From: an uncultured Lachnospiraceae bacterium
GTDB lineage: Bacteria; Bacillota; Clostridia; Lachnospirales; Lachnospiraceae
Assembly (NCBI GenBank): GCA_902779575.1
Contig: CACZBW010000020.1
Location: 24-64,023 of the forward strand
DNA length: 64,000 nucleotides
Direction: 5' to 3'
Shown here: positions 4,554-4,707 of the stretch, one piece after another
Layout: the number at the start of each line of letters is the position of its first letter
Position numbering within the stretch: position 1 is the stretch's first letter
Made by a program: the position numbers and the translations under genes
The notes under the pieces: model-generated
Databases searched by the model: none
Told to the model about the DNA's origin: nothing
Seen by the model: the letters and a program-made list of their open reading frames with translations, nothing else

Positions 4554-4591
4554 ATAGTTAGAGGACACTAGTCCTTAAAAAATATTCTTTC

Positions 4592-4612
4592 ACACTTGAA
4601 AAAGTGTTTTTT
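4592..4612 (+). terminator. Weak intrinsic-terminator-like hairpin (GNRA loop + U5) inside the leader
   Basis: ACACTT GAAA AAGTGT followed by TTTTT. The stem is AT-rich, so terminator efficiency is uncertain. Confidence 0.35.
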
Positions 4613-4676
4613 GGCCGACGAGGCCGCTTTAGAAAGAATAAATTGACCGACGAGGTCACTCTGGTTAGCCAGAGCA

Positions 4677-4707
4677 GGGTATGGTTAGCGCCGTACCCTT
4701 ATTTTTT
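4677..4707 (+). terminator. Intrinsic terminator-like hairpin just upstream of the MazF-like gene RBS
   Basis: 8-bp stem (one G.U pair), 6-nt loop, then TTATTTTTT. It ends 13 nt before AAGGAG (4721-4726). Confidence 0.55.

Follow-up and report, generated by a model that had tools for sequence, protein, structure and literature searches.

A conserved leader RNA with two GNNRA pentaloop hairpins upstream of divergent MazF/PemK-fold genes in Clostridia, a candidate RNA antidote or control switch

Main

MazF proteins are the textbook type II toxins, whose antitoxins are proteins, and the RNA antitoxins known from type III systems take the form of repeat arrays, acting together with ToxN-like toxins. 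Here we describe a leader RNA that precedes the gene for a predicted MazF/PemK-fold protein in an uncultured Lachnospiraceae bacterium (assembly GCA_902779575.1, contig CACZBW010000020.1, positions 24–64,023). This whole 64-kb stretch of DNA is the window; all coordinates are positions in it, and leader sites are on the plus strand. The leader lies between the stop of a 476-residue open reading frame (ORF; 3038–4468) and a 223-residue ORF (4736–5407), and it carries two look-alike hairpins with pentanucleotide loops. It appears to represent a well-supported, undescribed RNA family, which most likely serves as the RNA antidote or control switch of the protein encoded behind it.

As portrayed in excerpts of PMC3401426, toxin–antitoxin (TA) systems of type III (toxIN, cptIN and tenpIN) consist of a promoter, a noncoding RNA (ncRNA), an intrinsic terminator and a toxin gene, with no protein antitoxin; the same excerpts (Blower et al. 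2012) make the terminator responsible for how much antitoxic RNA there is per toxin transcript. The present locus shares this order of parts, a protein within the wider MazF/Kid-like fold class and a patchy distribution, sometimes beside integrases and restriction-type helicases. Unlike those systems, its RNA presents two short look-alike hairpins within a non-repetitive, multi-hairpin molecule instead of a tandem array, and its protein has a true MazF/PemK fold with a coiled-coil extension and is no relative of ToxN, CptN or TenpN. Type II MazEF/PemIK modules share the toxin fold and the dimer interface. They differ in that the window locus has no MazE/PemI-like gene or conserved neighbour, and in that its protein adds a pair of N-terminal helices and a coiled coil of 50 residues and is too divergent to match the Pfam model.

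The pemK RNA motif, a parallel in genomic position, is not known to have an established function. This motif, Rfam RF02913, comes from Weinberg et al. 2017 (PMC5737381) and likewise is a conserved structured RNA directly upstream of a PemK/MazF-family gene without an obvious upstream antitoxin gene. Its architecture is different (a 61-position multi-stem junction), as is its protein subfamily. On other contigs of the same genome, RF02913, searched with E ≤ 10 allowed, has two matches, both over its cut-off, with 71 and 49 bits (L105 1501–1597, minus strand; L106 1501–1602, plus strand), which precede classic PemK/MazF genes of 129 and 136 residues; one genome holds two kinds of structured RNA before MazF-fold genes. 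Assigning the present leader to RF02913 was rejected, since the model gives no hit at gathering score across the window, nor at E ≤ 10 on 4480–4760. A further parallel, from a Clostridioides difficile prophage, is AbiF/RCd22 (10.1101/2025.04.15.648962, as excerpted), in which a non-repeat ncRNA upstream of the toxin gene, with a conserved motif in two copies, is reported to neutralize the adjacent toxin by direct binding. To judge from those excerpts, that toxin belongs to the Abi_2/AbiD/F family and not to the MazF fold, and the abiF RNA motif is unrelated.

Results

A conserved, covarying four-hairpin RNA

Four hairpins form the core of the RNA (4605–4707). HP1 (4613–4625, within TTGGCCGACGAGGCC at 4611–4625) and HP2 (4645–4657, within TTGACCGACGAGGTC at 4643–4657) share a GACGA loop (4617–4621 and 4649–4653), closed by 4-bp stems at 4613–4616/4622–4625 and 4645–4648/4654–4657, respectively. 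HP3 (CTCTGG-TTAG-CCAGAG, 4659–4674) has a 6-bp stem and a variable loop, UUAG in this instance, and HP4 (GGGTATGG-TTAGCG-CCGTACCC, 4677–4698) has a stem of 8–9 bp. A preliminary description, made by reading the sequence, had listed these hairpins and two copies of an octamer within them, and all of its sequences and positions are correct. The region 4560–4745 folds at −65.1 kcal/mol, against −39.0 ± 3.6 kcal/mol for 200 dinucleotide shuffles (z = −7.3).

We aligned 64 distinct cores with plain MAFFT (alignment A3) and built a covariance model, R1, from the result. In this alignment 97.6% of cells are paired under the four-hairpin structure, compared with 32.6–47.3% when the 3′ partners are slid by 1–3 columns, and 15 of 22 pairs show both-side (compensatory) changes. 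Of five measures, four have observed values that 0 of 500 column shuffles reached; for the remaining one, further pair types, 79 of 500 did so. A second alignment, fitted to R1 from its 84 matches (73 distinct) and so leaning toward the model, has 98.9% of cells paired (33–46% when slid) and compensatory changes in 18 of 22 pairs. RNAalifold, supplied with no structure, finds HP1, HP2, HP4 and part of HP3, with compensatory changes in 15 of its 21 predicted pairs.

All four stems contribute. HP1 has changed on both sides in 4/4 pairs and is paired in 100% of cells in A3 (99.3% in the model-fitted alignment, to which the values that follow refer). HP2, the most conserved part of the RNA, is paired in 100% of cells with three of four pairs changed on both sides; HP3 has changed in 6/6 pairs; HP4, also 100% paired, in 5/8. 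The leader hairpins exceed chance, and the comparative covariance analysis bears out the first of two readings offered in the preliminary description, placing the element at the RNA level as a structure that is conserved and covaries. It belongs to no catalogued family that we could detect: across the whole window, Rfam (Rfam 15) yields 0 families at gathering score, and on 4480–4760 at E ≤ 10 there are two noise hits alone (E 3.3 and 7.4).

Paired pentaloops at near-fixed spacing

All 73 distinct leaders have an HP2 loop of the form G-N-N-R-A (G1, R4 and A5 each 73/73). Its variants are GACGA (52 leaders), GACAA (14), GAAGA (3; also a loop of lambda boxB), GGCAA (2), GCCGA (1) and GATGA (1). 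The HP1 loop belongs to the GNNRA class in 70 of 71 leaders (G1 70/71, R4 71/71, A5 71/71); the two of the 73 that have no HP1 are one-hairpin variants (L053 and L055). The loops singled out in the preliminary description are thus strongly conserved in homologous loci. GACAA occupies 28/73 HP1 and 14/73 HP2 copies and is identical to the boxB loop of phage P22, which, in excerpts of PMC12550061, adopts a GNRA-like fold with a looped-out C and is read by a protein. Short hairpins with GNNRA pentaloops are the feature held in common with phage boxB (the nut sites of N proteins) as excerpted there; the window locus has neither an N-like protein nor a boxA, and the likeness is one of loop sequence only.

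HP1 and HP2 start 32 nt apart in 49 of 72 loci, the values being 29, 31, 32, 33, 34 and 37. The purine-rich linker that sets this spacing (4626–4644, from the core alignment) is strongly conserved in the Lachnospiraceae branch, with a Shine-Dalgarno-like consensus (GAAAGGAUAAUUU), and is replaced by an unrelated ACCA-type sequence in the Oscillospiraceae/Ruminococcus branch. The HP3 loop is far more plastic, with 40 different sequences among the 73 leaders and lengths of 2–13 nt, and the HP4 loop is TTAGCG in 45/73. Nine distinct leaders differ from AC at loop positions 2–3, and in five of these the same change is found in both loops (three AA/AA, one GC/GC and one AU/AU), the other four being unmatched. 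Shared ancestry or conversion between the hairpins could be an alternative source of the matched changes.

Guanidine-II (mini-ykkC) riboswitches consist of two hairpins with conserved ACGR tetraloops, and tandem same-loop hairpins do recall such designs, as the preliminary description pointed out; those of the leader lie ahead of a terminator. A leader read by a small-molecule ligand in this manner, or by a general host RNA-binding factor, with the gene as mere cargo, would also be in keeping with the strong conservation of the loops (G1, R4 and A5 in 70–73 of 71–73 leaders). We nonetheless think it quite improbable. The guanidine-II analogy itself fails, since the leader has no Rfam match, its loops are 5-nt GNNRA loops whose natural variants GAAGA, GATGA and GGCAA contain no ACG, and the downstream gene is not a transporter. 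More generally, no conserved switching structure is apparent; the RNA occurs once per genome and with this gene family only, although other target genes would be expected of a general ligand or factor; and the loops change in step between lineages, suggesting a lineage-specific partner.

The RNA is exclusively linked to one gene family

R1 has one match in the window (4605–4704, 112 bits), which is also the single strong match in the 3.55-Mb assembly from which the window comes; a weak second match in this genome (C6, 27 bits) was dismissed as a mere terminator. Exactly one strong match (65.7–118 bits) was found in 83 of 93 homologue-bearing loci searched, and all 83 lie upstream of the homologue of the 223-residue ORF on the same strand. 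Two close-relative loci in viral contigs have one match each. In eight genera of the same family, with proteins 60–70% identical, conservation of the leader extends from the U-run 5′ of HP1 through the terminator, and the differences fall in loops or are compensatory. The RNA is exclusively linked to this gene family.

The window protein was used to find 80 further loci in one-genome-per-species contigs, among them Oscillospiraceae, Ruminococcus and Acutalibacteraceae bins with the same design at 44–53% protein identity. The RNA is present in 75 of the 80. For two of the remainder (L024 and L068) contig ends leave 34 and 91 nt of upstream DNA, and the other three carry damaged genes, with internal stops (L075), a stop at codon 2 (L076) or an end at residue 155 (L078); in none of these 80 loci was an intact gene seen to lack the RNA. 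The terminator lies 12–62 nt from the start codon in most loci. Two distant homologues (L011 and L012, 27–30% identity) have no leader RNA that R1 could find, even with filters off. The first of these (1225–2016 of L011, genome G368; 263 residues) has an N-terminal extension of about 45 residues, as do distant members of the protein alignment described below.

Distribution within the family is patchy. A strong protein match occurs in 10 of 401 sampled genomes, and the RNA in 7 of 151: the source genome, five with the protein, and G005. In the last of these (L099 1440–1740) the promoter is kept and the two-hairpin RNA is intact (109 bits); the ORF behind it is a remnant, its first 12 codons joined to a coiled-coil tail and its MazF domain deleted. 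Overall, the ORF behind the RNA is at most 160 residues long in 13 of 84 loci and at least 185 in 70, with one more cut by a contig end. Such decay, in G005 and in the short ORFs, is typical of toxin genes. Genome G124 (contig C10, L104 1520–1600) also has a degenerate remnant of the RNA (38 bits), with no homologous gene behind it.

The surroundings of the pair are not conserved: over about 85 loci, the largest cluster of neighbouring genes is present in only nine. Neighbours include integrases, ResIII/type I R-like helicases, and helix-turn-helix (HTH) or PolA-like proteins; the window has an MMPL transporter and a GNAT acetyltransferase in their place. Searches with the window protein returned no match in collections of phages (50,697 records) and plasmids (72,556 records), and two close relatives in viral contigs.

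The downstream gene encodes a predicted MazF/PemK-fold dimer

Searched alone against Pfam, NCBIfam, PHROGs, PADLOC and Protein Data Bank (PDB) sequences, the window protein gives coiled-coil noise only (residues ~170–223), and no match to ToxN, CptN or TenpN appears among PDB sequences at E ≤ 10. Relatives are numerous, with 869 proteins at E ≤ 0.001 among 1,090 candidates (240 representatives at 50% clustering), the named ones being called 'hypothetical', 'coiled-coil' or 'bZIP'. Aligning the protein with 61 relatives of 20–84% identity (alignment A2) reveals an invariant H70 and nearly invariant G51, G59, E65, V84, P86, S137 and R140. Among the 62 members, 44 match PemK_toxin (PF02452) at E ≤ 0.1, the best at 5.7e-8, and the profile of this alignment finds the B. 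subtilis EndoA/YdcE, MoxT and S. aureus MazF chains in the PDB (E 0.002–0.02).

The AlphaFold model (mean pLDDT 95.9, pTM 0.84) is composed of two N-terminal helices, a β core (52–148, within a MazF/PemK-fold core of ~48–150) and a C-terminal helix (169–221) that forms the coiled coil. In a Foldseek search of the PDB, the best 30 matches listed are all MazF-family chains (best E 1.5e-6, target-normalized TM 0.66–0.80), and 71 matches reach E ≤ 0.001. Prediction with two copies scores 0.82, compared with 0.00 for the best of three controls; 20 of 30 proteins whose solved structures are pairs pass the mark used for a dimer, as does 1 of 23 whose solved structures are single chains. The dimer runs have at least 91% of contacts in common (partner pLDDT ≥ 87), placing residues 185, 192 and 199 against their counterparts (185:185, 192:192, 199:199) in a parallel coiled coil and creating a MazF-like interface at 62–65 and 131–140. 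On these models, the gene encodes a divergent, dimeric MazF/PemK-fold protein, which is likely to be an endoribonuclease (RNase).

No MazE/PemI-type antitoxin ORF is present in the ORF list of the window, and the lack of any conserved neighbour in ~85 loci implies that no MazE-type antitoxin is present. A small type II antitoxin might instead be encoded by the leader itself, in a 43-codon ORF (4604–4735) whose TGA abuts the TTG start of the gene. This ORF is present in the window, and in close relatives such as L016, L019, L020 and L025 it is open and ends beside the gene start. We rejected it as a gene and give the idea very little credence, as its reading frame is not conserved across leaders: HP1–HP2 spacing and HP3 loop length vary, a stop interrupts the linker in many leaders, and the end of the open stretch shifts between 77 nt upstream of the gene start and positions inside the gene, in differing frames. 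The more distant branch would encode an unrelated peptide, stem variation is compensatory, and no ribosome-binding site (RBS) precedes the GTG.

Signals around the core and the gene

Promoter and terminator calls were made by consensus scans. A −10 region (TG + TATAAT, 4546–4553) can be read directly upstream of the leader, and a GTGTATAAT-type box lies at the matching position in six of eight aligned leaders; the consensus scan proposes an overlapping site at 4531–4558. Transcription would be expected to start near 4560–4566. The first element of the transcript would be a 5′ hairpin (GAGGAC/GUCCUU, 4561–4576, from the minimum free energy fold) of the Lachnospiraceae branch only. Many relatives have AGAGG...CCUCU-type hairpins of differing sequence at this position, and the hairpin is missing where the promoter directly adjoins the next element, P0 (for example, L083, L086 and L089). 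Fold and comparison place P0 at 4592–4607, followed by a U-run (4607–4612); its place is conserved and its sequence variable, such that most distinct leaders have a 5–8-bp P0 hairpin of differing sequence ending just 5′ of the U-run and HP1.

At the other end, HP4 and the U-tract TTATTTTTT (4699–4707) make up an intrinsic terminator (4677–4707, terminator scan) that would end the short RNA. Its stem energy is −13.2 kcal/mol, and the U-run is conserved in the alignment. This role had been omitted from the preliminary description and is an addition to it. Beyond the terminator lie an RBS, AAGGAG (4721–4726, conserved in relatives), and the TTG start of the 223-residue ORF given by the ORF list (4736–5407, plus strand), a start codon shared by 45 of 63 distinct loci. 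The module is closed by a terminator-like hairpin with a 10-pair stem (5416–5439, listed by the scan on the minus strand) just past the stop codon (5405–5407). On the upstream side, the 476-residue ORF (3038–4468) begins with a signal-like N-terminus, matches nothing in Pfam and directly follows the MMPL-family transporter gene (947–3031).

GGTTAG repeats and the LytTR regulator

The preliminary description offered a second reading at the level of DNA. The octamer TGGTTAGC occurs at 4662–4669 and 4682–4689, 20 nt apart, and was taken as a possible site of direct repeats for a LytTR regulator encoded in the window. The rarity that it estimated for such repeats holds up: the window contains two instances of GGTTAG-N12-17-GGTTAG where 0.01 would be expected, a number that 0 of 100 shuffles attain, and a genome-wide count finds that the pairs are not common background, both matches in the 3.55-Mb assembly lying in the window. 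One is the leader pair (4663–4688). The LytTR gene (53286–53723) is also real (PF04397, E 4.5e-21), although it is encoded on the minus strand, translation of the plus strand meeting five stops; its ORF may extend to 53834. The second GGTTAG pair (59309–59335, minus strand, spacing 21) lies in a gap between a 170-residue ORF that could not be annotated (58642–59154, minus strand, adjoining a methyltransferase gene) and the gene for a Crp-family regulator (59946–60620).

Conservation does not follow the repeats. Two GGTTAG copies are found in only 8, and two TGGTTAGC copies in only 4, of the 73 distinct leaders; the first octamer sits in the HP3 loop, with its 40 variants; and substitutions in the flanking stems are compensatory, an RNA signature. 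The repeats also lie downstream of the promoter, within the transcribed leader. Their poor conservation and the variability of the HP3 loop indicate that the GGTTAG repeats of the leader are a by-product of two hairpin tops, and a LytTR site at this position now seems highly improbable.

Discussion

By analogy with described systems, a type III-like TA module is, in our view, the best though a tentative account of the locus, one in which an RNA running from promoter to terminator would offer one hairpin to each subunit of a toxin dimer; its chance of being right falls a little below even. A sigma-70-type promoter would drive a short RNA of ~145 nt (about 4562–4707), comprising a conserved ~100-nt core with the two GNNRA hairpins, a third hairpin and the strong intrinsic terminator. 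The gene would be reached by read-through transcripts only, so that, owing to the terminator, the RNA would greatly outnumber the toxin mRNA, and the weak TTG start would keep toxin synthesis low. Binding of the RNA to the symmetric dimer, one pentaloop hairpin per subunit, would hold the putative toxin inactive, and loss of the RNA supply would be the trigger that frees its RNase activity. The symmetry is suggestive, in that the predicted homodimer matches an RNA with two look-alike hairpins at near-fixed spacing. More tentative is the further claim that the locus defines a new class of RNA antitoxin, with a MazF-fold RNase dimer silenced by a single non-repetitive RNA carrying two boxB-like pentaloop hairpins ~32 nt apart, and neither by a MazE protein nor by a processed repeat array; we judge this less likely than not.

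Of the two RNA analogies in the preliminary description, the type III antitoxin is the better fit, with its promoter, RNA, terminator, MazF-fold gene and absence of a protein antitoxin; the repeat units that it had proposed are not borne out. Three of the four structural elements of a type III layout are present (promoter, terminator and toxin gene), and the fourth, the tandem array, is not: Tandem Repeats Finder gives 0 rows on 4400–4800 at a minimum score of 30, and only ~15–18 nt are alike per 32-nt unit. This is the first of several points that weigh against a type III-like module. With the repeat array missing, repeat processing cannot be assumed; the protein, moreover, is not a relative of ToxN, CptN or TenpN, and for both reasons we do not file the locus in those families. 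Two hairpins are not obligatory. In L053 (814–921) and L055 (2860–2967), the promoter adjoins HP2–HP3–terminator and HP1 is missing, yet the gene looks intact (224 and 187 residues). Some of the truncated ORFs counted as decay may be assembly errors of metagenome bins.

Other points bear on the protein and on the transcript. The window protein has no match to Pfam PemK (PF02452) at E ≤ 1 and none to any PADLOC model, and its success as a predicted homodimer may stem in part from the memory that the model has of solved MazF dimers. The position that we take to align with the catalytic Arg of MazF holds His, which makes RNase activity uncertain. RNA-library data from four runs in three studies (X3, X5, X6 and X11) are available as contigs only, which cannot show transcript ends, strand or levels. 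Two of these contigs, from the same study (4643–5053, X3; 4651–4929, X5), bridge the terminator, and no short RNA is seen. A third (4593–4715, X11) ends 8 nt past the U-tract, at its own contig end, and is unlike the leader in its 5′ part; the X6 records (4401–4551 and 4545–4695) are single 151-nt records. These contigs neither support nor refute the short RNA.

The main rival is a cis-acting autoregulatory leader. The protein would set its own level and have no trans-acting antitoxin, its dimer binding the two pentaloop hairpins in the nascent transcript of its gene to change termination at HP4, mRNA stability or processing. Every linkage observation fits equally well a purely cis-acting leader that holds the gene's only promoter: the RNA invariably precedes the gene in cis on its own strand, a terminator separating the two, and loss of the leader alongside gene decay would also be expected if it contains the sole promoter. 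Rfam classes the analogous pemK RNA (RF02913), found before classic PemK genes in the same genome, as cis-regulatory, and GNRA-like pentaloop hairpins are, in excerpts of PMC12550061, the protein-binding sites of phage boxB antitermination elements. We still consider this account somewhat unlikely. No conserved antiterminator that would compete with HP4 was found, HP2, HP3 and HP4 being separate and nearly contiguous, and the RBS is not sequestered in the fold. Genome G005 keeps an intact RNA and promoter after deletion of the protein domain. A cis-acting leader is also silent on the role of the protein and on how a MazF fold is tolerated without an antitoxin. The antitoxin and cis-acting readings are not mutually exclusive.

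Neither the RNA nor the protein family was found described in the literature searched, including the strings in eight supplementary files of PMC8040213 (two further files went unsearched), and a prior listing may exist in the supplement of Weinberg et al. 2017, which lay outside this search, or in other catalogues. Even if the leader proves to be purely cis-acting, it constitutes a well-supported RNA family that is not in Rfam. If the antitoxin reading is true, the MazF fold will have acquired an RNA antidote on more than one occasion, here through a different structural solution, and the class would bridge the type II MazEF and type III ToxIN designs. The GNNRA pentaloop and the MazF-fold dimer would then provide a small, defined RNA–protein recognition pair, and a like role would be indicated for the orphan pemK RNA motif. 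For the Clostridia of the gut and rumen, at least several hundred unannotated genes would join the TA, and possibly the phage-defence, repertoire.

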